The notes under the pieces were generated by a model, which did no database searches, had not been told where the DNA came from, and worked only from the letters and a program-made list of their open reading frames with translations. DNA of 64,000 nt from a virus (Duplodnaviria; Caudoviricetes): positions 1 to 64,000 of the IMG/VR virus record IMGVR_UViG_3300046678_000974; one strand, written 5' to 3'. Of this stretch, positions 25,348 through 40,354 are shown in pieces. The position numbers were made by a program, and so were the translations under genes. Each line of letters starts with the position of its first letter. Positions within the stretch are counted from its first letter, which is position 1.

Positions 25348-25860
25348 TCAGACTACGGACCAATTTGTACCGTTGTAAATTAGATCGACACTCGAAAAGG
25401 CAAGATTGAGTACGATACCAGTGGCGCCCAACACGTTATCAATATTCTGCGTGGCTTTCACGGTGATCGCATTTGTCGCTGCATCACCTTTGCCGTCTTT
25501 CACAGTGATAATTCTTCCAGTCGTGGGGGCGGCTGGCAGGGTTACTTGAGTGGCAGCACCACTCGTCTTATTAATGACCACATAGCGATCAGTTGCAGCG
25601 ACGGTATAGTTGCCAGCGGCGATGATCACAGCAATCTTACGGACTTCGGCAGACGAAGTGGTGATAACACCACCAACGCTCAGCGTATTTGATAGAGTGA
25701 TCGGACCAGTCAGCGTTTGCGCCGTGCTTTGATGGATCGACACTGCATCATCAAAGGCGTTGTTCAGTCCGAGAGGAACAGCGCCGCCAGTATTGGCGCC
25801 GCATTGAGTGCCGTCCACAAAGACGACAGAACCATTATAGGAATTGCTAAAAACCGACAT
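25348..25860 (-). CDS. small fibre/adaptor protein, paralog of 45806-46279
   Basis: Start MSVFSN after GAGG and TAAATA (25883-25888); YTV..TDRYV...PTTGRIITVKD...ID...IYNGTNW domain. Confidence 0.75.
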   Translation of the reverse strand: MSVFSNSYNGSVVFVDGTQCGANTGGAVPLGLNNAFDDAVSIHQSTAQTLTGPITLSNTLSVGGVITTSSAEVRKIAVIIAAGNYTVAATDRYVVINKTSGAATQVTLPAAPTTGRIITVKDGKGDAATNAITVKATQNIDNVLGATGIVLNLAFSSVDLIYNGTNWSVV

Positions 25861-25889
25861 CTCATATCCTCGGAGTATGGGATATTTAG

Positions 25890-28800
25890 CTAGCCCACTG
25901 AGGCTGTCCAACTCATGGTCATGCTGGTACTTGTGGTCGAACCAATCAATGGTGTCCCCGGTATCGTAGGCAATCCAACCGTAGGTACGGGTTGTGGTGC
26001 TGCGCCAACTGCATTTAAGACAACCACACTCATTGCTGGAATAGTGATCCCTGCGAGCAAAGCCGACGTAGATAAGGTGGTGGTAAAGCCAGTCGGGTGC
26101 GTCGAAGACAACTCCCAATATGTCCAAGCTGATGTCGATGAACCATTCATCGCCACCGAAACTGGATAAGCTGTAGAGACATCGTAATTGATGATCTGAC
26201 AGCAGGTACTGTTGGCGTTCACAGTCCCCAAGGTTACGATGTTCATCCCAGAAGAGGTTGTTGAACTGATAACATTTCCGGGTGCCAATGCTCCCAGTTT
26301 TTGATATACATATCCCGGTGGACGTAGGAAATATGGTCCTTGTCCAAACGTATTTGAATCTATCAGCCCATACCATTGATCATAGGCGATATCCCAACGA
26401 TTAGCCCATGCCAAGGTTCCTACTTTGCCGATAGTGGCATATCGAAATGCTGCATATACAGCCCCGGTCACATCAGCCTGATATGAACTGGCACCGGGCT
26501 GTCCGTCCATGTTGAACTCGGTGAGGAATATTGGTGCTGTTGAAGATATCGCTGTATTGACATTCTGACGAACATCTAAGAAGATATCAGTGAGTTCATC
26601 TGAGAAGCATTGTGCAACTGACTTGCTACCATTCTCCTCGGTATATCCATGTCCACTGATGAAGTCAGGATGACAGTTTTGAATGAATGTCGTTAATCTT
26701 TGATTATTGAAATACGAATCATCCAAGCCACCGCATTGATATGAGGGATCAACGGCTTTTATTCCAACCGCCATGGCGTTAAAAAGGCCGATACACGAAT
26801 TGATATCGGTACCATCGGCTTCGTTAGCAAATGTCCAATAATAAACTGGCACACCACCATTCTTGAAATGTTGTGCTATTTGCTGACAACGATCTTGATG
26901 AACTGCCCAGTCAGATGGTGAAGTGATGTTCAACCATGAACACCATCCCACTGTGATGATTAAGTTGGCGGTCGTTAACGTGGTGCCAATGGTAAAGCAC
27001 TTCTGCGCATTGTTGATAAAATTATCAATCCAACTCCAATCTGCTGCTGATGTGCGAGTGGGAAAAATCTGTGTGATGTGGAAGTTCTGATTCCAGTTAA
27101 GACGAATGGAACCAATGTTCATCGACTTGCAGATGGTTTGAAATGCCGGATCGACCATCAATCCATAATCACCACGTGTGATGTTCATATCATTACAGGC
27201 AACACCATAAAACTTTGGCGATATTGCCACACCGGTTAGTGATGTCAAATTGAAGGTGACGTTCGGTCCTGTCGGTGGTTGAACTGGCGGTCCCGGAACC
27301 AATCCCAAGGGGCTGACTGTTGTACCACTGGAGGGCTGCCACGCATCACTTGATACTGTTTTGAAGTACCATAGTACACCTTGCGGCAGATTTGCCGGAC
27401 CAGTGATTGGTCCTGAGAATGTTTGGGTCGATAGATTCCAAGTGAACCAATTCTGAGAAGGACCATCTTGGGCAAAGATTATGTTTTGATAGAGATCGAT
27501 TGCACTGGTATTGCCGCCACCATTGATAATGTTCCCATCCATTCGGAAGTTCTCTTGGACATCGATGGTATAGGTATGACCTCCAAATACAATGCTACCA
27601 TTATTCGGTGTCGCATAGGTAGAAGTACTCAAAATGGTCGCAGATGATTGCCGCCAAACTTGTCCATTCACATAGGCAAGCGATATTACAGTGTTACCAG
27701 CCGAAGCATCGACTGCGCCGTTTACACTAACACGCGAATTGGCCAATGTCCAACTGGACAAATCAGAACCAATAATTGACGTTAGTGGTGGCACCGTTGA
27801 ACCATTGGGCGATGCTGAAACGAATGGATTGGCAACAGATGCCCAAGGATCAGATACCAGCGTCTTGACAAACCAATTCCCTAATGAGTTCTCGATATAA
27901 ACACGGCTATTCAGATACACAACTTCGACAGCCGAAACATCTGGTACCCCATTGATCACAACACGATTGTTGCTCAATGTCCAAATGGTTAGATCGGAAC
28001 TAATGATCTGAGTTGCCGGAGGAATGATAGTTTCATCGGCTGATGGTGTTAATGAAGGCGGTCCCGGTGGCCCACCCGGAGGTGGTACTGGTACTTGGCT
28101 GATGCTATAGATTTGTGACAGATAGGCGGATTGTTCAGGATATAATGATCCACCACCCCATGCTGTAACTACGCCGAAGTCAGGTGATGAACCACGATGC
28201 GGTCCCCAATAACACCATGCCCATGAGATTGGCTGTTGTCCAGTGAGGAACCGAGGGCCACCACTAGCTTGGCCATTGACGTACTGCACGAATGTATTGC
28301 CCCAATTGGTAGCATCAGTGGTCAACATAGCATCGCCGCAGGCCATAACCATTACCGGTGCGATGTTATTAGATACCATGAAGCCCCACATCGTATTGGC
28401 GCGATTGATATAAACGGTACCAGCATCAATACCGGTACCAATCGGCGCAACCTCATTAGGGAATGACTGGACGCCATAGACAACTTTATTGGAGACAGTG
28501 AGGTTCACCGGCGTGGTCGAGGCCAATCGCAAGTCGCCTTCAAAGGAACCGGTCGCCACATTGAGGGGTGCTTCGCAGATGATCAATGGGTTACTGTCGA
28601 TTGCTTGGATGGCATTGCCCACACTGACGTACATGGCGTGCAGATCGGTTGGGGTGTTATCACCCCATGTCGCACCGAGATTGACGCCTTGGGCAGATAT
28701 GGGTGCCCAGCGTAGATCATAACCTAAGATTGCTGTGTTATTAGCATAGCGATTGGCTATCCGTGTCCAATGCTGCGCAAATATACTCGATGTGATTGTA

Positions 28801-30746
28801 CCTGTGGTTCCCGATCCATCGGTACCATCGGTGCCGTTTCCGGTGGAGAACCACAATCCATTGGCTTGGCCTTGTGCATCAGGGAGTACGATACCTTCAC
28901 TGCTATGAGAATCGAGAATAACCCGCATGCCAATAAAGCCAGCATAAGCAATAATTGCATCGAGCACTTCCATATAGGCTAAGCCCACAAGATCAGGATT
29001 GATCGTTGTGTTGATGCCGGTGATCATATCGTTGTTCATAACGCCAGCGTCATTGAGCAAGATACGAATAGCGTTGAAACCAAGACGCGCCATATCCTCC
29101 ATCGTCACTTGGTAGCTGACGATATCAAGACCACGCAGGAAACCATTGCGTAGGTGCATACCATCCCAAGTGATCGCGTTGATGCGGATTGATTGGTTAT
29201 TGATGTCGAGTATCTGACTACCCGAGACATGCATGGGGCCATTTGTAAGTGCGTGAATTGGTGCCGGTTGTGGTGTCGGTTGCGGCCCCACTGGTGGCCC
29301 AGGGGGAGGACCAGGGGGTGGCCCTCCTGGTGGTGTCACTGGCGGAGTTGGTTGGGGTGGCCCTCCTGGTGGTGTCACTGGCGGAGTTGCTTGCGGTACA
29401 TTGGCGACCGGTATAGGTGTCGGGATATTACCCGCAGCAGTGATGCCTGTCGTCGTCAACCACAATTTTCGACCGGTTGATTTCCAATCGTTGTAGAGTT
29501 TCCGTAACCAGCCATTATCGCCCCAGAGTGGCAAGCCATAAGGACTTTCCGGATCGATTGCTGTTTCCCAATAGGATTGTATGTTGGACGAATTGGCACT
29601 TTGGCCGAAAGGCGCACTAATCTCGATGCCGATCGCGTCCCATATCTGGGTCGCACCCGAACCCCAATCCATTGCGGTATTGCTACCCTTTGGGCCGACC
29701 GTAGCTGGGGTAGCTTGGTACAGCACAGAACCACTGAATATCGATTTACAGGCTGCGTAAAGTGCTCGCCATTGTGGCATGTAATCAACCGGACTATCGC
29801 CGTCGCCTTTATAGGGAAATATACCGGGGGCAATTGAAAGAGCGATGCAGCCATTTCGTGTTGCGCATGTCGCTAATTGAATAGCAAGAGACTGTAAGTT
29901 GGTGAGAAACACCACAGGATCAGATGGTTGGATCAGATACTTTGCTTGTAGATCAGTCGAGTTCAACACTAATGCAAGGATAACCTGAAGACCATTGGCT
30001 TGATAAGTAGCGCAGACTTGGTCGATCGACCCTCCAAGGATAACCGGATCATTGTTGGCATCCTTCCAGTGTACGTCAGTGGCATGTACATTCGGCATAA
30101 AGGCCAGCACAGGCACATAGACTGCCGAAACATTCAAGGTGTTTTTGATTGCCGCACTGTTGGCTGGTTCACCACTACCCGGATATAAGTCCTGTACGGC
30201 AGCGACAATGTTCATGTTCGCAACAGGCGGTACTGGATTGGGTGATGGCCCCGGCGGCGGTGTCGGTCCCGGTGTTGGTGTGGGGCCGGGCGGCGTGGGC
30301 GTTGGTGTGGGGCCGGGCGGTCCCGGTGGTGGTGCAGGTAGCGGGACGAAAGGAAGTGGATTCAATCGATCATTGATATGTTGGATCGCCTCAATAAACT
30401 TTTGAGCCGGTCCCGGATAGCCTAGCACATTGGACATGCGCAGCAGGTATTGTTCTGCCCAATACGACATCCACGCATCGTTGAGGGGTACGGTTAGATT
30501 GCCGACGGTATCAGCGGAAACAATCGATGCTTCGTTGATTTGTTTGGTTTGAAACAAGATCGCTTCATTGGCAGCGATGAAAATCTCTTCCAATCCCGGT
30601 GTACTGGGATCGGCATTTGATTCAATTTGATTAAGGGCGCGTTGAAGATCGGCCGCCGATTGGGGATTGGTCGTTGCATCGGCTGGGATTTGCAACTGTG
30701 AAATCTGTTGCAACAACTGTGCAAGCTGCGGGGAAATGTCCGTCAT
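25890..30746 (-). CDS. ~1618-aa multi-domain glycan-binding/hydrolase protein: degenerate GH113/GTA-TIM-like + degenerate GH5 + beta-modules + GH39-like domain
   Basis: Domains are joined by Pro/Thr linkers. GH5 skeleton (RLGFNAIRI, VILDSH, ILGYDLR-WAP); last barrel has ANEAD and IFLTEFN. TAAATA lies 5 nt before ATG 30746. Confidence 0.8.
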   Translation of the reverse strand: MTDISPQLAQLLQQISQLQIPADATTNPQSAADLQRALNQIESNADPSTPGLEEIFIAANEAILFQTKQINEASIVSADTVGNLTVPLNDAWMSYWAEQYLLRMSNVLGYPGPAQKFIEAIQHINDRLNPLPFVPLPAPPPGPPGPTPTPTPPGPTPTPGPTPPPGPSPNPVPPVANMNIVAAVQDLYPGSGEPANSAAIKNTLNVSAVYVPVLAFMPNVHATDVHWKDANNDPVILGGSIDQVCATYQANGLQVILALVLNSTDLQAKYLIQPSDPVVFLTNLQSLAIQLATCATRNGCIALSIAPGIFPYKGDGDSPVDYMPQWRALYAACKSIFSGSVLYQATPATVGPKGSNTAMDWGSGATQIWDAIGIEISAPFGQSANSSNIQSYWETAIDPESPYGLPLWGDNGWLRKLYNDWKSTGRKLWLTTTGITAAGNIPTPIPVANVPQATPPVTPPGGPPQPTPPVTPPGGPPPGPPPGPPVGPQPTPQPAPIHALTNGPMHVSGSQILDINNQSIRINAITWDGMHLRNGFLRGLDIVSYQVTMEDMARLGFNAIRILLNDAGVMNNDMITGINTTINPDLVGLAYMEVLDAIIAYAGFIGMRVILDSHSSEGIVLPDAQGQANGLWFSTGNGTDGTDGSGTTGTITSSIFAQHWTRIANRYANNTAILGYDLRWAPISAQGVNLGATWGDNTPTDLHAMYVSVGNAIQAIDSNPLIICEAPLNVATGSFEGDLRLASTTPVNLTVSNKVVYGVQSFPNEVAPIGTGIDAGTVYINRANTMWGFMVSNNIAPVMVMACGDAMLTTDATNWGNTFVQYVNGQASGGPRFLTGQQPISWAWCYWGPHRGSSPDFGVVTAWGGGSLYPEQSAYLSQIYSISQVPVPPPGGPPGPPSLTPSADETIIPPATQIISSDLTIWTLSNNRVVINGVPDVSAVEVVYLNSRVYIENSLGNWFVKTLVSDPWASVANPFVSASPNGSTVPPLTSIIGSDLSSWTLANSRVSVNGAVDASAGNTVISLAYVNGQVWRQSSATILSTSTYATPNNGSIVFGGHTYTIDVQENFRMDGNIINGGGNTSAIDLYQNIIFAQDGPSQNWFTWNLSTQTFSGPITGPANLPQGVLWYFKTVSSDAWQPSSGTTVSPLGLVPGPPVQPPTGPNVTFNLTSLTGVAISPKFYGVACNDMNITRGDYGLMVDPAFQTICKSMNIGSIRLNWNQNFHITQIFPTRTSAADWSWIDNFINNAQKCFTIGTTLTTANLIITVGWCSWLNITSPSDWAVHQDRCQQIAQHFKNGGVPVYYWTFANEADGTDINSCIGLFNAMAVGIKAVDPSYQCGGLDDSYFNNQRLTTFIQNCHPDFISGHGYTEENGSKSVAQCFSDELTDIFLDVRQNVNTAISSTAPIFLTEFNMDGQPGASSYQADVTGAVYAAFRYATIGKVGTLAWANRWDIAYDQWYGLIDSNTFGQGPYFLRPPGYVYQKLGALAPGNVISSTTSSGMNIVTLGTVNANSTCCQIINYDVSTAYPVSVAMNGSSTSAWTYWELSSTHPTGFTTTLSTSALLAGITIPAMSVVVLNAVGAAPQPVPTVGLPTIPGTPLIGSTTSTSMTMSWTASVG
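29315..29389. repeat. perfect 36-nt direct repeat (period 39 nt) in a Pro-rich linker
   Basis: GGGGTGGCCCTCCTGGTGGTGTCACTGGCGGAGTTG at 29315 and 29354. Confidence 0.9.
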
Positions 30747-30754
30747 GGACATAT

Positions 30755-31291
30755 TTACCCATTGGGTATGCCTCGTTTCGAGATTGCAGAAGGGATAATA
30801 AGCGTAGATGCCGTGGCGACAGCGAAGGTTATTACCGAGTTCCGAGTCATTGGATTTTCCAATGGTGCTTCGAGACTAACCTTTGTCGCTGTGCGATTTC
30901 CCATTGGAGGGAGGGTGCGCGTAGGAATCGGAGACGGTGGCAAGACCCCGGCAACAGGCGTGGGAAACAGAGCACTGATATCAGCGTAACCTTGAGCGAA
31001 TGGGATACCCGAGGGAATTGTGTATATTTGTTCAACCGATGTCACCAATCCAAACGTATTGTAGCCTGCACAGTATATCAAGTTACCAATCCCAATACCA
31101 TCAACAGGAAACAACATCAGTACTTGATCACCTACAAGATTGTCAGTCGAGGTGATCGCATCGATCGGACCATTGATCACCCAATCGCTCAGGTGATTGG
31201 TGGTCATGATGCTAACAAAGCCGGTGGCATCTCCGAAGTTTTCCAAGGCCAAGCGAATGGCATCGGCATGTAGCACTTTGATCTCTTTCAT
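30755..31291 (-). CDS. hypothetical protein between the two giant glycanase genes
   Basis: ATGA overlap with the upstream gene; its TAA stop is part of the next TAAATA box. Confidence 0.65.
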   Translation of the reverse strand: MKEIKVLHADAIRLALENFGDATGFVSIMTTNHLSDWVINGPIDAITSTDNLVGDQVLMLFPVDGIGIGNLIYCAGYNTFGLVTSVEQIYTIPSGIPFAQGYADISALFPTPVAGVLPPSPIPTRTLPPMGNRTATKVSLEAPLENPMTRNSVITFAVATASTLIIPSAISKRGIPNG

Positions 31292-34200
31292 GGCGTCTTC
31301 TTGATCCCCGCAAACGAACTGCCGATCACCCCAGCGGCTGGTGTATTAATCACACCAGTATCTTGATTGCCCGAGGAACCCTGTGGATCACCGGTCGAGA
31401 CTGATACTCCGAAGAATATATCAGCATTACGTACCATCTCATTGGTAAGTGCCTGCCAATATGCATTGAACACTGGTGCCACAACACCAGAAGGTGCTGG
31501 TACCGGTGGTAATGGTGGCCCGCTGGCCGGTGATGTAGCCAATTGCGGTACTACAGTGTTAGGACTAACACGATCGCCCGGACCATTCTTAGGGGAGGTC
31601 GCAAATGCCTGACCACCAATATGTTGGTTCCGCAAGGGACAAACGAACTGGAGAATGGTCGGCAAATCTTGATTGAGATTGGCAGTAATTGATGGATCAA
31701 CATCCTGTGTCACACAGAGATGGAAGCCGTCAGGTGAACTACCCCGCCACAATGCTCCAAAGGTTTGCAGACAATTCCAGATCATCTGTCCTTCCGTAGT
31801 CAATCCATTTGGCATGATCGCTGATTGAGGGATACCCACCGTGGTACCAGCGACCAGATTGCCAGTGTATGGCACGATGTCTTGCAGGTCTTGTTTCTTT
31901 TGCGGCCATGATGCCGGTGTCAGATTATCCGATCCATCACTGCTACCACTGCGCAAGAACTGAGGAGCATGCATATAGCGAAGCATATGGGTGATGGCTG
32001 GATAGGTTGTGTTTCGATTGGGATCGAAATCGTATGAGGTCAACATTCCGGGGATACCACTGTACCCGTAATTAGATGACTCTTGATCCTCACCGTAATG
32101 ATCACTGGTTGGATCATCGGTCTCGCCAAACGATGCGAACACATTCTGGTCACCGGTGATGGGTGACTGATTGATGTCAACGAAGCTCCATGTGGTTTTG
32201 GGATTACCGGAGATATCCCAGACATTAAAGCTATTGCGACCAAACGAAGCACCTGATGTAGGGCCGGGGGTATACGCCTCCAAAGGTATATGGAGATTGG
32301 CAGTCAGACCGCTGTCGCGTTGATACGCGTCTGGGGCGGTAGCAAATGTGCTGATCGGATCACTTGCAGCGGCAAACCAGATCACATCACCCTGTGCGAT
32401 TGACGGCGTGACACTACCGCCGTGACGGAGATCGATGGTATCGCTATCACTGTTCTGTCCCCAAACGGCACCACTACCGAGTTTGGTCACCCAGACACTC
32501 GGGCCACCAACGGTGCCGGTGGAACCATCGCCGCCGGGGACGTCCCAATAATTGCGTGGAGCGACCACAGGTGCTGGTGGTGGAAAGATCGGTGGTGGCG
32601 TTGGAGGGGGTTGTACAGGCGGCCCAGGTGGCAACACAGGCGGTCCCGGTGGTTGCACTGGAGGGGTTGGTACAGGCGGGGTTGGCCCAATAGGGCTTGG
32701 CGGTACTGGAACGGTTACATTAAACGTGCCAGTCAATGTAACGAGACTACGCGATGGTAGTTGCAGATTGAAATTACCGGTGACTGTCAAGTTCTGTTGG
32801 ATAGGTGGGTTGGCGTGTGCCGGTGACAGTTCCCAATAGATCGCAGTTTGGTTCGGCAATCCGATCAAGGTAACAATTTGCGTAGATGGTGAATAGTTGA
32901 TGAACGCGGTGCTGAATGAATAGGTATCAACAGAGGCTTCAATTGCTCCGCCGATTTTTACTGTGCTGGCAAGACAAATCACATTCGTCAAAGCCGGACC
33001 AACTGATGAAAAGACTTGGGTACCACCCATGATTCTTCCAAGTTGCCCCAACATATAGCCCATTGGTCGAATATTAGAACCGTCGTTATTGACGATAGTG
33101 AAGTTATTATTCTGGCCAATAGTCCAGATAGCCCCACCCATGATGTTATTATCGAGATTGGCACGAGCACCCAAAGTGTAGAGCGCACCGAAGATTGCAC
33201 CATCGATCGTTTGCATCATCGGTTCAGAACCGTTAAAATCAATATTCCATTCGCCCAAAAATATTGGAATATTGGGGAAGGCTGCTCGCATGGTCGCAAT
33301 ATCGCTGGTTTGGCGATTGATGATCGATGAAAATAACGAGAAGTTGTTAGTATAACTACCAGTCACATAGGTGTGGTATGACACAAAATCTGGATTGTGT
33401 GACACCAATGGAGTGTTAAAATCGCTTCGGGCAAACGAGGTGGTAGGCCCACCTACTTGATAGTTGGGGTTGACCGACTTCAGAGCATTACGGATTGTAT
33501 CAAAGGTATTAAAATAACTGATCTGATCAGCATCAGGTTCATTCCAATATTCCCAATAGAAACATTCGAAACCATTATTCTTGAAGAAGTTGGCTAATGC
33601 GATTGCTTGGGACGCACTACCTTTGGTCGCAAGACCACCAAAGGTAAACACCTGCTGCATACGGGATAGATCAGACGCGCTAGTCGGTTGTTGCCACATC
33701 TGACTCCGCAAACCAGTGAGCCAGTTGTTCTGCATTGTAATGTTTTGATTGCCACCACCGGGCCAATGATCAAGTGATCCCTGTGTGTTATGACGAAACA
33801 AACGCCAGTTCTGTTGGTGATAAGTTGATTGCCAACCGGGATTAGCGGCGGCTCCATAATCATTAACCCCCGGCGAGTTCAATCCCTCGGACCCAACACC
33901 CCAAATAAATGGCGAGATTTGACCGACAGGTGTTGTAAGACCGATGACCACTTGCGTACCGACAGCCGGTGATGGGCTGGGCGAAGGAGGCGGCGCCGGT
34001 ACTGGTGGGGGAGAGGGAGGTTGTCCAGGTAGATTGGGGGGCGGTGTAACTGGTCCGGTGCTGAAGCTATTGGTTAATTCGATGTATTGAAACCAGTTGC
34101 CAGTGGTTGCATCAGCGGCATAGATGAAGTTATCAAATAGATCGGCCTGCCCAGTATTGCTGCCACCGGGTACTGCGCTGCCATCTTTGTTGAAGTTTAG

Positions 34201-35970
34201 ATTTAAACCAATGGTATAGGTATGACCATTGAGTACCAACGATCCATTACCAGATGTGATATAAGTCGTGGTACTAGGTGGTGTCGGTGTTGGTGTCGGA
34301 CCGGGTGGCGATGGCATTACCACACCTATCGTCGGATCGACAGATGTACCAGAACCGGGAGACCACACATCGGATGGAAAGGTTTTTGCCCACCATAGAT
34401 TGGATGAGTTTTTTTGCCAAACTTGTCCACTGATATAAGCAATTTCAATCACATTCGATGATTGGCCATCGGAGTTTCCGTTCACGCCGACGGAACCATC
34501 ACCCAAGATTGTCCAAACAGTACCATCGACGCCGGTGATACTAGCCCATGGCGGAACTTGAACACCATTCAAACTGGGAGTCACACCGGGCGAAGGAGGC
34601 GGCGAAGGCGGAGGTGGGCCAACCGGTGGGATAGGTACAGTCGAACCACTAAATGGCAGCGTACTTAACATCACCACTGAAATGGCGGGTACGTTAACCG
34701 TTAGATTGGTGGTCGTCGTTTGATGCGGGGTGTTCTGATTGACCGAACCAATCTCCCAGTAGTTGTATGTCCTGCCGGGAATATCGCCGGTAACACTGAG
34801 TGTAATCGATTGCTGCGATGATCCGTAGTTGATCAATTGGATCGTATAATCATTACCATTCTTGGTCGCCAATACACCGAGGTTGCTGGCCGAACCAATG
34901 ATCGTCACTTGTTGTCCAGCCATCCAGCGTGCGCATTGGGAAACAGTATAGCCAGTCGGACGAATGAACCCAGCAGGTGCACTGCCGTTTCCGTTTAGCG
35001 GAATGACACCGAAGTTGCTATCACCAAACAAGTTCCAGTGACCACCATAAACCACATTAGCGCCAGATTTGGCGACAGACTGCATGGCGAGAGCCGAGTG
35101 ACAGGCACCCACATACGATCCGTTGTCCCCATCGCTTCCGTTAAAACTGACATTGTGTTCGGTGATTGCCTGTGGTTTGTTGGCAGTCACATTGGCGATC
35201 GGAATAGCGAGATTATTTCCCCAAACACTGGCATCGTTCAAGTTTTGTGTTGGTGACTCGGTACCGGTCGCGCCAGACGTATAGCGATGCCATGAGCAGC
35301 CAGCAAATTGCGACCCCAAAGTATTCTGGGCATTTTGCGCATCATCTTGGTAAGGGAAATCATCCGCTAATCCGAAGACATGGTGGGTGTTTCCGGTACC
35401 ATCATTGTACGCAGCGAGTGCTGTAGCGACTGCACTGATACAGGCGAGATGAGTGCTAATGTTTTGGCCATGGGGGTATTCATTGAATACCTCCCAGAGG
35501 TAGCACGGAAATCCCTTGCTGAACGCGTACTGTGCGAGTTGGACGAATTGTTGACCGAGTAGCGCTCGATCGTTGGCATTCGACAGATTGAGCCAAGGTG
35601 GTGCGCCGGGACACAGCATCAACTGGGTCGTTGCTGGGTTCATGAACTTAAGGGCGTTATTGAAGAGATCGCCTACCCAAGTGTTGAAGTTGGGACTAGC
35701 TCCCCTTGACGGGAAACACCCACCCATAACGAAGCTGGAGGCCAGAGGATTGGCGGGTGATGGGCGAGAATTATCCCAGTTGAAGCGCAGGAAGGGGATG
35801 GAGATTTGGGAGGCCAGCGACTGGAAGGTTGAACTCGTGCAAGCTTCACCGGCAAACGGGGTCTGACTCTGGAACGAGTCCATCTGCATCTGATTGGTGG
35901 CGAACCCATAGAGGGTACGGGGAACGATGATGCCAGTAGTGCTGGTAAGATTGACGGTAATGTTGACCAT
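31288..35970 (-). CDS. ~1560-aa protein with two GH39-like (clan GH-A) domains, beta-modules and an uncharacterised C-terminal domain
   Basis: WEVFNEYP/AITEHN and WEYWNEPD/IFLGEWN catalytic motifs are intact; Pro-rich linkers; TAAATA lies 4 nt before ATG 35970. Confidence 0.8.
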   Translation of the reverse strand: MVNITVNLTSTTGIIVPRTLYGFATNQMQMDSFQSQTPFAGEACTSSTFQSLASQISIPFLRFNWDNSRPSPANPLASSFVMGGCFPSRGASPNFNTWVGDLFNNALKFMNPATTQLMLCPGAPPWLNLSNANDRALLGQQFVQLAQYAFSKGFPCYLWEVFNEYPHGQNISTHLACISAVATALAAYNDGTGNTHHVFGLADDFPYQDDAQNAQNTLGSQFAGCSWHRYTSGATGTESPTQNLNDASVWGNNLAIPIANVTANKPQAITEHNVSFNGSDGDNGSYVGACHSALAMQSVAKSGANVVYGGHWNLFGDSNFGVIPLNGNGSAPAGFIRPTGYTVSQCARWMAGQQVTIIGSASNLGVLATKNGNDYTIQLINYGSSQQSITLSVTGDIPGRTYNYWEIGSVNQNTPHQTTTTNLTVNVPAISVVMLSTLPFSGSTVPIPPVGPPPPSPPPSPGVTPSLNGVQVPPWASITGVDGTVWTILGDGSVGVNGNSDGQSSNVIEIAYISGQVWQKNSSNLWWAKTFPSDVWSPGSGTSVDPTIGVVMPSPPGPTPTPTPPSTTTYITSGNGSLVLNGHTYTIGLNLNFNKDGSAVPGGSNTGQADLFDNFIYAADATTGNWFQYIELTNSFSTGPVTPPPNLPGQPPSPPPVPAPPPSPSPSPAVGTQVVIGLTTPVGQISPFIWGVGSEGLNSPGVNDYGAAANPGWQSTYHQQNWRLFRHNTQGSLDHWPGGGNQNITMQNNWLTGLRSQMWQQPTSASDLSRMQQVFTFGGLATKGSASQAIALANFFKNNGFECFYWEYWNEPDADQISYFNTFDTIRNALKSVNPNYQVGGPTTSFARSDFNTPLVSHNPDFVSYHTYVTGSYTNNFSLFSSIINRQTSDIATMRAAFPNIPIFLGEWNIDFNGSEPMMQTIDGAIFGALYTLGARANLDNNIMGGAIWTIGQNNNFTIVNNDGSNIRPMGYMLGQLGRIMGGTQVFSSVGPALTNVICLASTVKIGGAIEASVDTYSFSTAFINYSPSTQIVTLIGLPNQTAIYWELSPAHANPPIQQNLTVTGNFNLQLPSRSLVTLTGTFNVTVPVPPSPIGPTPPVPTPPVQPPGPPVLPPGPPVQPPPTPPPIFPPPAPVVAPRNYWDVPGGDGSTGTVGGPSVWVTKLGSGAVWGQNSDSDTIDLRHGGSVTPSIAQGDVIWFAAASDPISTFATAPDAYQRDSGLTANLHIPLEAYTPGPTSGASFGRNSFNVWDISGNPKTTWSFVDINQSPITGDQNVFASFGETDDPTSDHYGEDQESSNYGYSGIPGMLTSYDFDPNRNTTYPAITHMLRYMHAPQFLRSGSSDGSDNLTPASWPQKKQDLQDIVPYTGNLVAGTTVGIPQSAIMPNGLTTEGQMIWNCLQTFGALWRGSSPDGFHLCVTQDVDPSITANLNQDLPTILQFVCPLRNQHIGGQAFATSPKNGPGDRVSPNTVVPQLATSPASGPPLPPVPAPSGVVAPVFNAYWQALTNEMVRNADIFFGVSVSTGDPQGSSGNQDTGVINTPAAGVIGSSFAGIKKTP

Positions 35971-36401
35971 CAACTATTTACCGGCCATCTCTCCGGTCTC
36001 TCAAGGTAACACCTGTCTCAAAAATGAGACAGCAATCATACGCTCCAGCGCAATCGAACCATTGCTCTGATAATTAAAAAAATGTAATCTTGCTGTTATA
36101 TGATTTTTCAGACGACAACCACTTGTCGGCATCTGTGTCGTCATTTGGCAATTTTTTAGACGACCTGTCATTTGCAAAAAAAAAGACAGGGCGACCAGCA
36201 GGGAGCCACTGTACCCCTCTGGGGACGACGACTGGCAGGTCGCGATTGCCAGCCCTGTACGCTCTTCTGGCGGCGATAGCGATCCTGTTCTGTACCAGCC
36301 CTGCCTTGCTGTCGCTTTTCCGATTCAAAGTACCAAAACTTCGCAAGGCTAAGCAAGGAAGCTCTGCTTCCGCAGCGTGCCGCAGCGAATGATTGTTTTC
36401 T

Positions 36402-39178: not shown

Positions 39179-40354
39179 ATGACATTGTTTACCAAAAACT
39201 TTGATCAAATGGTCGATGCACAACAAGCATCGCTCCAAGTCGCCAATCCATTGTTTACGTTCTCGGCTGGTTCCGACGTCCAAGCCTTCGCAGAAGCCAA
39301 TGCTGGGATCGCACTGTTCCTCCAATATTTGATCTTCAAGACCCTGACACAAACTCGACTGGCTACCAGCTTCGGTGCGGATGTCGATAGTTTCGGCGCT
39401 GATTTTTTATTCGCGAGATACCCAGCGATCTCTGCTACCGGTCAAATCTTGATTACGCGGTTTACTGCTCCCAATGAAATCCGTATCCCGATCAATGCCG
39501 TGGTCAAGACATCAGATAATGCCGTCAGTTTTGCCATCATCCCCGATAGTAACAACGCTACCTATAACGCAGGGTTTCAAAGTTATGTTATGAATCCGGG
39601 GGTGTTCCAAGTCTCGGCATTGGTCAAAGCTATAGTACCCGGTACTATAGGCAATGTCGCTGCCAATACAGTGACCAAGCTGTCAGCCTCCTTGGCGATC
39701 GGCTCATTGACCAATCTGGCACCCTTCGTTAATGGCGTCGATCAAGAATCGGATGCGGCATATAAGAATCGGTTTCAGTTTTATATCAATACTCGTTCGG
39801 CCAGCACCCGTCTTGCTATTGAGAACGCGATCATCAACACCCAGACCGGTTTGACTTATACCATCAATGAAAATGTTGATGCCGAGTTTAAGCCATTGCC
39901 GGGACAGGTCACCATCTATGTTGATGATGGTACCGGGTTTCCGCCTGACATACTGTTTGCTGGTACAGTGGCAACACCGGGGCTGTGGCAGAACATCAAC
40001 AATGTAAGACCCGCTGCGGTATCGTTCACTGTCGAACCAGCCCATCCGGTACCAGTGAATATCGAAGTCAGTACCATCTTCAATCCGGGATATAACAGAA
40101 ACGATTTTGTTGGACTTATCGGTACTGCTATCGCCAACTACATCAATTCGCTTGCAGTAGGGCAGACCCTGTATATGACGCGCTTGTATCAGGTGATCTA
40201 CGATAGTGTTCCGGGTGCTCTGGCTGATGCGCATGATCTATTGATCAATGGCGATTCAGTCGATGTCACTGTGACACCGGCGGAAGTCCTGCGGTTCATC
40301 AGCAATGCACCGCCCGGATCAGATATCCCACCGAGCGAAATGACCATAGATTGA
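39179..40354 (+). CDS. baseplate J-like protein
   Basis: ATGQILITRF, GNVAANTV, NGVDQESDAAYKNRF, VYVDDGTG-type and VRPAAVSF motifs. Confidence 0.9.
   Translation: MTLFTKNFDQMVDAQQASLQVANPLFTFSAGSDVQAFAEANAGIALFLQYLIFKTLTQTRLATSFGADVDSFGADFLFARYPAISATGQILITRFTAPNEIRIPINAVVKTSDNAVSFAIIPDSNNATYNAGFQSYVMNPGVFQVSALVKAIVPGTIGNVAANTVTKLSASLAIGSLTNLAPFVNGVDQESDAAYKNRFQFYINTRSASTRLAIENAIINTQTGLTYTINENVDAEFKPLPGQVTIYVDDGTGFPPDILFAGTVATPGLWQNINNVRPAAVSFTVEPAHPVPVNIEVSTIFNPGYNRNDFVGLIGTAIANYINSLAVGQTLYMTRLYQVIYDSVPGALADAHDLLINGDSVDVTVTPAEVLRFISNAPPGSDIPPSEMTID

Follow-up and report, generated by a model that had tools for sequence, protein, structure and literature searches.

The DNA analysed here is the first 64 kb (hereafter, the window) of an uncultured phage contig of 76,408 bases (JGI; ~76.4 kb). 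The window derives from a myovirus-like phage and encodes a major head protein, a tail sheath, a tape measure protein, a baseplate wedge and beta-helix fibre proteins. The capsid and sheath proteins are 45-50% identical to their counterparts in Komagataeibacter and Ralstonia phages, and homologs of the capsid found in genomes belong mostly to Acetobacteraceae prophages, with some in Burkholderiales. Because these are its relatives, the phage probably infects a proteobacterium, and the sequences hint faintly that the host is perhaps an acetic-acid-type bacterium of the Acetobacteraceae.

Within a minus-strand block of fibre-like genes, the window carries an intact multi-domain reading frame of 1620 codons (25890-30752, minus strand; its product is referred to as P0001). 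Its neighbours are beta-helix fibre genes and a gene for another multi-glycosidase protein, of 1561 aa (31288-35973, minus strand), while the baseplate wedge gene lies further along (39179-40354). This tailed phage therefore encodes the 1620-aa protein in its tail-fibre or baseplate module and, from gene position only, we infer that the protein is associated with the virion. A TAAATA box (30752-30762, minus strand) directly abuts the ATG of the gene and overlaps the stop codon of the upstream gene. The TAG stop of the gene itself (25890-25892) is followed by a second TAAATA box (25872-25889, minus strand), which precedes the ribosome-binding site of the next gene. Mechanical ORF calling places a frame of 342 aa (25348-26376, minus strand) across the end of the 1620-aa gene, in a different reading frame. 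The true start of the following gene is most likely the ATG at 25872 (MSVFSNSYNG...), from which a small fibre-like protein of 174 aa would be made. The neighbouring 1561-aa protein matches the Pfam GH39 family (E 6.5e-09) and contains two GH39-like barrels, both of which, as judged by eye, appear to have NE and E motifs, together with Pro-rich linkers and small beta modules in common with the 1620-aa protein. Its C-terminal domain of ~430 aa has no family match.

The 1620-aa protein is built from a series of separable domains. The N-terminal domain (residues 1-125; 30378-30752, minus strand) has no family match and is possibly the part that attaches to the virion. It is followed by domain A (residues 186-445; 29418-30197, minus strand), flanked on both sides by Pro/Thr linkers, by a GH5-like barrel (residues 505-885; 28098-29240, minus strand), and by a set of small beta modules (residues 905-1135; 27348-28040, minus strand) also present in the 1561-aa protein. 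These small modules gave no informative family match and are candidates for a binding role. The C-terminal part comprises a GH39-like barrel plus a beta sandwich (residues 1157-1580; 26013-27284, minus strand), which scores just below the 26-bit cut-off of Pfam PF01229 (E 8.4e-06, 25.3 bits). Alignment of this barrel with the Geobacillus XynB1 xylosidase (PDB) places a glutamate at both catalytic positions, in the motifs FANEADG for the acid/base (26811-26831, minus strand) and FLTEFNM for the nucleophile (26508-26528, minus strand), and the barrel is apparently an active glycosidase. The last 22 residues before the stop codon (25893-25958, minus strand) resemble the beginning of an FN3 domain, its first two strands. 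Two other large phage proteins start with only the C-terminal half of FN3 (Pfam fn3 positions ~31-83); both are encoded on the plus strand (L077:13429-15675 and L077:15684-16406, the latter running off the contig end).

Domain A deserves separate mention. It resembles GH113 clusters of a protein atlas by protein-language-model features (score 0.92) and falls below the cut-off of the Pfam GH113 profile (E 0.056). In place of the expected NE and E motifs it reads IAPG (residues 307-310) and TTTG (433-436), with no glutamate at either site. Searches with domain A found no match in the PDB or in PHROG, residues 168-536 retrieved no homologs, and a profile-profile comparison built with the whole of the ortholog described below matched the live GH5 of that ortholog, which is uninformative for domain A. 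We treat it as a lead that domain A may be a second dead barrel, GH113-like and of clan GH-A, in tandem with the dead GH5.

The assignment of residues 505-885 to a GH5_1-type (beta/alpha)8 barrel is secure on sequence and model comparison and lies far beyond chance. The segment matches Pfam PF00150 with 63 bits against a cut-off of 23.5 bits (E 4e-17), and phmmer searches of the PDB retrieve two endoglucanases, the metagenomic CelE2 (8fc0; E 1.7e-39) and that of Acidothermus cellulolyticus, E1 (1ece; E 3e-32). The scaffold motifs on which the original prediction had based a GH5 fold are all present on the minus strand: VSGSQILD (29205-29228), MARLGFNAIRI (29061-29093), MRVILDSH (28905-28928) and ILGYDLR (28710-28730). 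An AlphaFold model computed from an alignment of 50 sequences has eight strand-helix units with a pLDDT of 93 and a pTM of 0.94; this alignment was used in place of the single sequence, from which the pLDDT was 29. Foldseek superposes the model on 8fc0 and 1ece with TM scores of 0.80-0.83. As in these two GH5 subfamily 1 endo-beta-1,4-glucanases, to which it is ~30% identical, the barrel keeps the conserved Arg (R563, equivalent to E1 R62), the conserved first His (H616, equivalent to E1 H116) and many scaffold Gly, Pro and Trp residues.

Catalysis in clan GH-A needs both glutamates. The original prediction held that the barrel has lost them, and alignment with the GH5 endoglucanase structures (8fc0 and 1ece) bears this out, since no glutamate occupies either catalytic position. 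The acid/base motif N-E-P reads W-A-P (28701-28709, minus strand), with E1 N161-E162 pairing with W682-A683 (28704-28709). The H-x-Y motif is replaced by Q762-S-F764 (28461-28469, minus strand), where E1 has H238 and Y240. At the nucleophile, the motif reads M-A-C-G (28335-28346, minus strand), in which A804 (28341-28343) pairs with E1 E282 and the preceding conserved Gly has become Met803. To these five losses, already listed in the original prediction, a sixth can be added, that of the conserved Trp of the -1 subsite (E1 W319), which is now C847 (28212-28214, minus strand). Altogether, substitutions (N682W, E683A, H762Q, Y764F, E804A and W847C) affect six of the eight canonical GH5 positions, and the AlphaFold model places the replaced residues where strands beta4, beta6, beta7 and beta8 reach their C-terminal ends or directly beyond. 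Neither in the model nor in the alignment does an acidic residue take the place of either glutamate on strands beta4 or beta7. The barrel therefore differs from E1 and CelE2 in lacking N-E, H-x-Y, the nucleophile Glu and the -1 Trp, in being embedded in a phage multi-domain protein, and in the Gly/Thr/Asp-rich insertion after strand 3 that its subgroup possesses.

How unusual this combination is can be gauged from an alignment of 316 related domains, whose catalytic columns are the same as those obtained from the E1 and CelE2 pairings. At the seven positions of the catalytic set, 293 (286 + 7) of these domains read R/T-H-N-E-H-Y-E, and the reading W-A-Q-F-(A/G) at the five catalytic positions occurs only in the 1620-aa protein and its ortholog. 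When the positions conserved in at least 80% of canonical domains are considered (n=63), the dead GH5 keeps 48 and changes 15, and the changes fall on six of the eight canonical residues versus nine of the 55 other conserved positions (Fisher p 0.0015). By this measure the scaffold of the barrel is preserved and its chemistry removed. Because both catalytic glutamates and four of the six conserved helper residues have been replaced, sequence and model together exclude hydrolysis by the retaining clan GH-A mechanism. Automatic annotation would nonetheless label the 1620-aa protein as a cellulase or an endoglucanase, and the dead GH5 would be tallied among "viral carbohydrate-active enzymes" though it is unable to work as one.

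One ortholog is known, a metagenome protein of 2198 aa (P0002) found on four contigs of the Logan assemblies, where the near-identical members of its cluster differ by only one or two residues. Like the 1620-aa protein, it possesses the N-terminal domain, domain A, the dead GH5, small beta modules and a GH39-like domain at the C terminus. Between its beta modules and the GH39-like barrel it carries extra modules, namely a live GH5 and a phosphoesterase domain (PF04185), at residues ~1520-1740. Because both are absent from the 1620-aa protein, the fibre appears to gain and lose modules at its Pro-rich linkers. The identity between the two proteins varies along the chain, from 41% in the small beta modules and 45% in the N-terminal domain to 53% in the GH39-like barrel, which keeps both glutamates, 59% in domain A and 60% in the dead GH5, the best-conserved domain. 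The catalytic set of the ortholog reads R-H-W-A-Q-F-G, so that W-A and Q-x-F are common to both proteins; the nucleophile position is Ala in one and Gly in the other, and the position of the -1 Trp is Cys in the former and Asn in the latter. When the closest domains are arranged in a tree, the two dead GH5 group together as a clade with a long stem, and the canonical domain P0203 is their sister. As W-A and Q-x-F are shared at 60% identity, these replacements must predate ~40% of protein divergence and, since the dead GH5 is in addition the best-conserved domain, the loss is old and the fold is under selection. The shared substitutions and the high conservation thus point to an inactive state maintained by purifying selection. 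Repurposing rather than decay had been proposed in the original prediction, and it agrees with the intact ORF, with the ortholog bearing the same substitutions in its best-conserved domain, and with the concentration of losses on the catalytic set. That the gene decayed recently, or that the substitutions are errors of sequencing or assembly, has a negligible probability: the frame of 1620 codons is intact, an identical fragment of 799 aa is encoded on a second contig, and the same substitutions recur in the ortholog; these three observations contradict both an artefact and a recent pseudogene.

No further members of the dead clade came to light when IMG/VR and JGI metagenomes were searched with the domain and with the alignment of the two proteins, or when metagenome, viral and GTDB genome contigs were scanned with a degenerate DNA pattern encoding NKVVYxxQSFPNE. 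In the databases searched, the dead clade thus comprises only two independent lineages. The profile scan of IMG/VR used patterns containing NE and HxY, so it could return canonical domains only; five of the contigs that it yielded have no capsid homolog in common with this phage.

Partial or independent losses of the catalytic machinery are found among the relatives of the dead GH5. A neighbouring clade (P0004, P0005, P0006 and P0204) of GH5_1-like domains in modular metagenome proteins of 900-1800 aa keeps the nucleophile Glu, and its acid/base Asn-Glu has become AK, QR, SL or NV; by sequence, these domains could represent an intermediate state or a different chemistry. In a protein of 445 aa encoded by an Acetobacteraceae MAG, Gln takes the place of the nucleophile, and P0003, a protein of 2605 aa, pairs a live GH5 with a second one that became dead independently. 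P0003, the Acetobacteraceae protein and the clade devoid of the acid/base indicate that catalysis has been lost several times in this group. The repeated loss has often affected very large modular proteins in which a live barrel is also present, as in the ortholog, which has a dead and a live GH5 in a single chain. Such graded relatives, with the full machinery, with the acid/base alone lost, or with everything lost, provide a natural set for studying the passage from glycosidase to pseudo-enzyme.

GH5 barrels on tail or fibre proteins of phages are not new. The closest viral structural matches of the dead GH5 are tail proteins of Erwinia, Klebsiella and Pseudomonas phages, and gp095 of Erwinia phage S6, gp18 of Klebsiella phage SopranoGao and the corresponding proteins of Erwinia phages Fifi067 and pEp_SNUABM_01 all carry a GH5 barrel. 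Unlike the dead GH5, to which they are only 24-28% identical, these four proteins keep the full R-H-NE-HxY-E-W set. For phage S6, bacterial cellulose has been identified as the first receptor, and the GH5 protein gp095 degrades carboxymethyl-cellulose (PMC9544554). Non-catalytic GH5 modules are also known and sit on long branches: GH5_30, the Xanthomonas GH5-expansin-CBM63 proteins and a lipoprotein group near GH5_8 (Aspeborg 2012, PMC3526467). The dead GH5 resembles those modules in its incomplete machinery, its long branch and its attachment to other modules, and differs from them in having arisen independently in a GH5_1-like group and in the setting of a phage fibre. A literature search found no description of a dead GH5 in a phage fibre setting; the dead GH5 is thus a new, independently derived case of a kind of module already known.

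In other families, inactive glycosidase folds acting as lectins are well known, such as the GH18 chitinase-like protein CHI3L1/YKL-40. They belong to another family and another biology, and glycan binding has been demonstrated for them, whereas for the dead GH5 we infer it. A glycosidase-fold TIM barrel whose catalytic acid has been replaced, kept as a glycan binder, is also described in PMC13637049.

We favor, with a probability of about 0.5, the reading that the dead GH5 acts as a lectin-like, non-catalytic module for reversible attachment to host glycans that positions the live barrels. The remodelled cleft would hold a polysaccharide of the host surface or matrix without cutting it; this non-cutting hold would make attachment reversible, and attachment would place the C-terminal GH39-like barrel, as well as the barrels of the 1561-aa protein, on the glycan layer. 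Binding of glycans is taken as the most likely role because the module belongs to a phage fibre and adjoins an apparently live GH39-like barrel. Many loop residues that characterise the family, none of them catalytic, are kept, among them N631, W634, W696, D703, D740 and W849, which fits a cleft still able to hold a sugar chain, and the beta-glucan (cellulose-like) ligand put forward in the original prediction would be plausible. Several observations speak against this role. The -1 Trp has been lost, and both its position and that of the nucleophile differ between the two orthologs, so that the center of the old active site looks unconstrained. The loops of the catalytic face show no special conservation. 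In addition, high conservation could reflect constraints on folding or assembly alone, and candidate binding modules exist elsewhere in the protein (residues 905-1135).

Those same observations would suit a module that binds no ligand and serves only as a rigid spacer or assembly unit, setting the geometry of the fibre or stabilizing neighbouring domains. We regard such a purely structural role as rather unlikely, and yet as a serious rival. Apart from the variable active-site center, it gains from the loops of the catalytic face, whose conservation is slightly below the domain average (a ratio of 0.93, versus 1.02 +/- 0.09 in canonical control pairs that are not mutually independent), from the strands being the best-conserved element (72%), and from the equal conservation of domain A, possibly also devoid of catalytic Glu. 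However, a barrel of 380 residues would be a costly spacer in a protein that already has Pro/Thr linkers and small modules, the dead GH5 exceeds the apparently active GH39-like barrel in conservation, and a scaffold alone would not account for the many family-typical residues kept in the loops of the cleft. The new aromatic residue W682, placed in the old active site of both orthologs, would be of use to a cleft that docks a protein, either another fibre protein of the phage or a protein of the host surface, and several fibre proteins of this phage, with their split FN3 pieces, appear to need docking partners. An adaptor of this kind is nevertheless improbable, given that no co-varying partner has been identified and that the literature search found no precedent among GH5 modules.

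That the barrel is still an enzyme, working by a non-canonical mechanism (lyase, transglycosylase or substrate-assisted chemistry) or through other residues, seems very improbable. Aspeborg et al. leave this option open for GH5 modules with incomplete machinery (PMC3526467), and the sister clade formed by P0004, P0005, P0006 and P0204, which lacks the acid/base only, might retain partial chemistry. In the dead GH5, by contrast, both Glu and the Asn, His, Tyr and -1 Trp are all gone, with no acidic replacement for either glutamate on beta4 or beta7. Asp807, which follows the old nucleophile strand (beta7) in both orthologs, might be thought to substitute, but it is also found in five of the 40 closest canonical domains and is therefore not specific to the dead clade.

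Should the lectin-like reading hold, the dead GH5 would mark a route by which phages derive new receptor-binding modules from their own depolymerases, and it could be turned into a specific probe that detects a bacterial surface polysaccharide without degrading it. A broader version, which we put forward tentatively and consider rather unlikely, is that phages of proteobacteria coated with exopolysaccharide or cellulose have on repeated occasions converted barrels of clan GH-A into modules that recognise glycans without cutting them. The GH113-like and GH5-like tandem would then serve as the head by which a giant fibre binds its receptor, with the live barrels behind it, and dead glycosidase barrels would constitute a distinct, unrecognised class of phage receptor-binding domain. 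The same pattern is seen in related modular proteins, in the pairing of dead and live GH5 barrels in P0002 and P0003.
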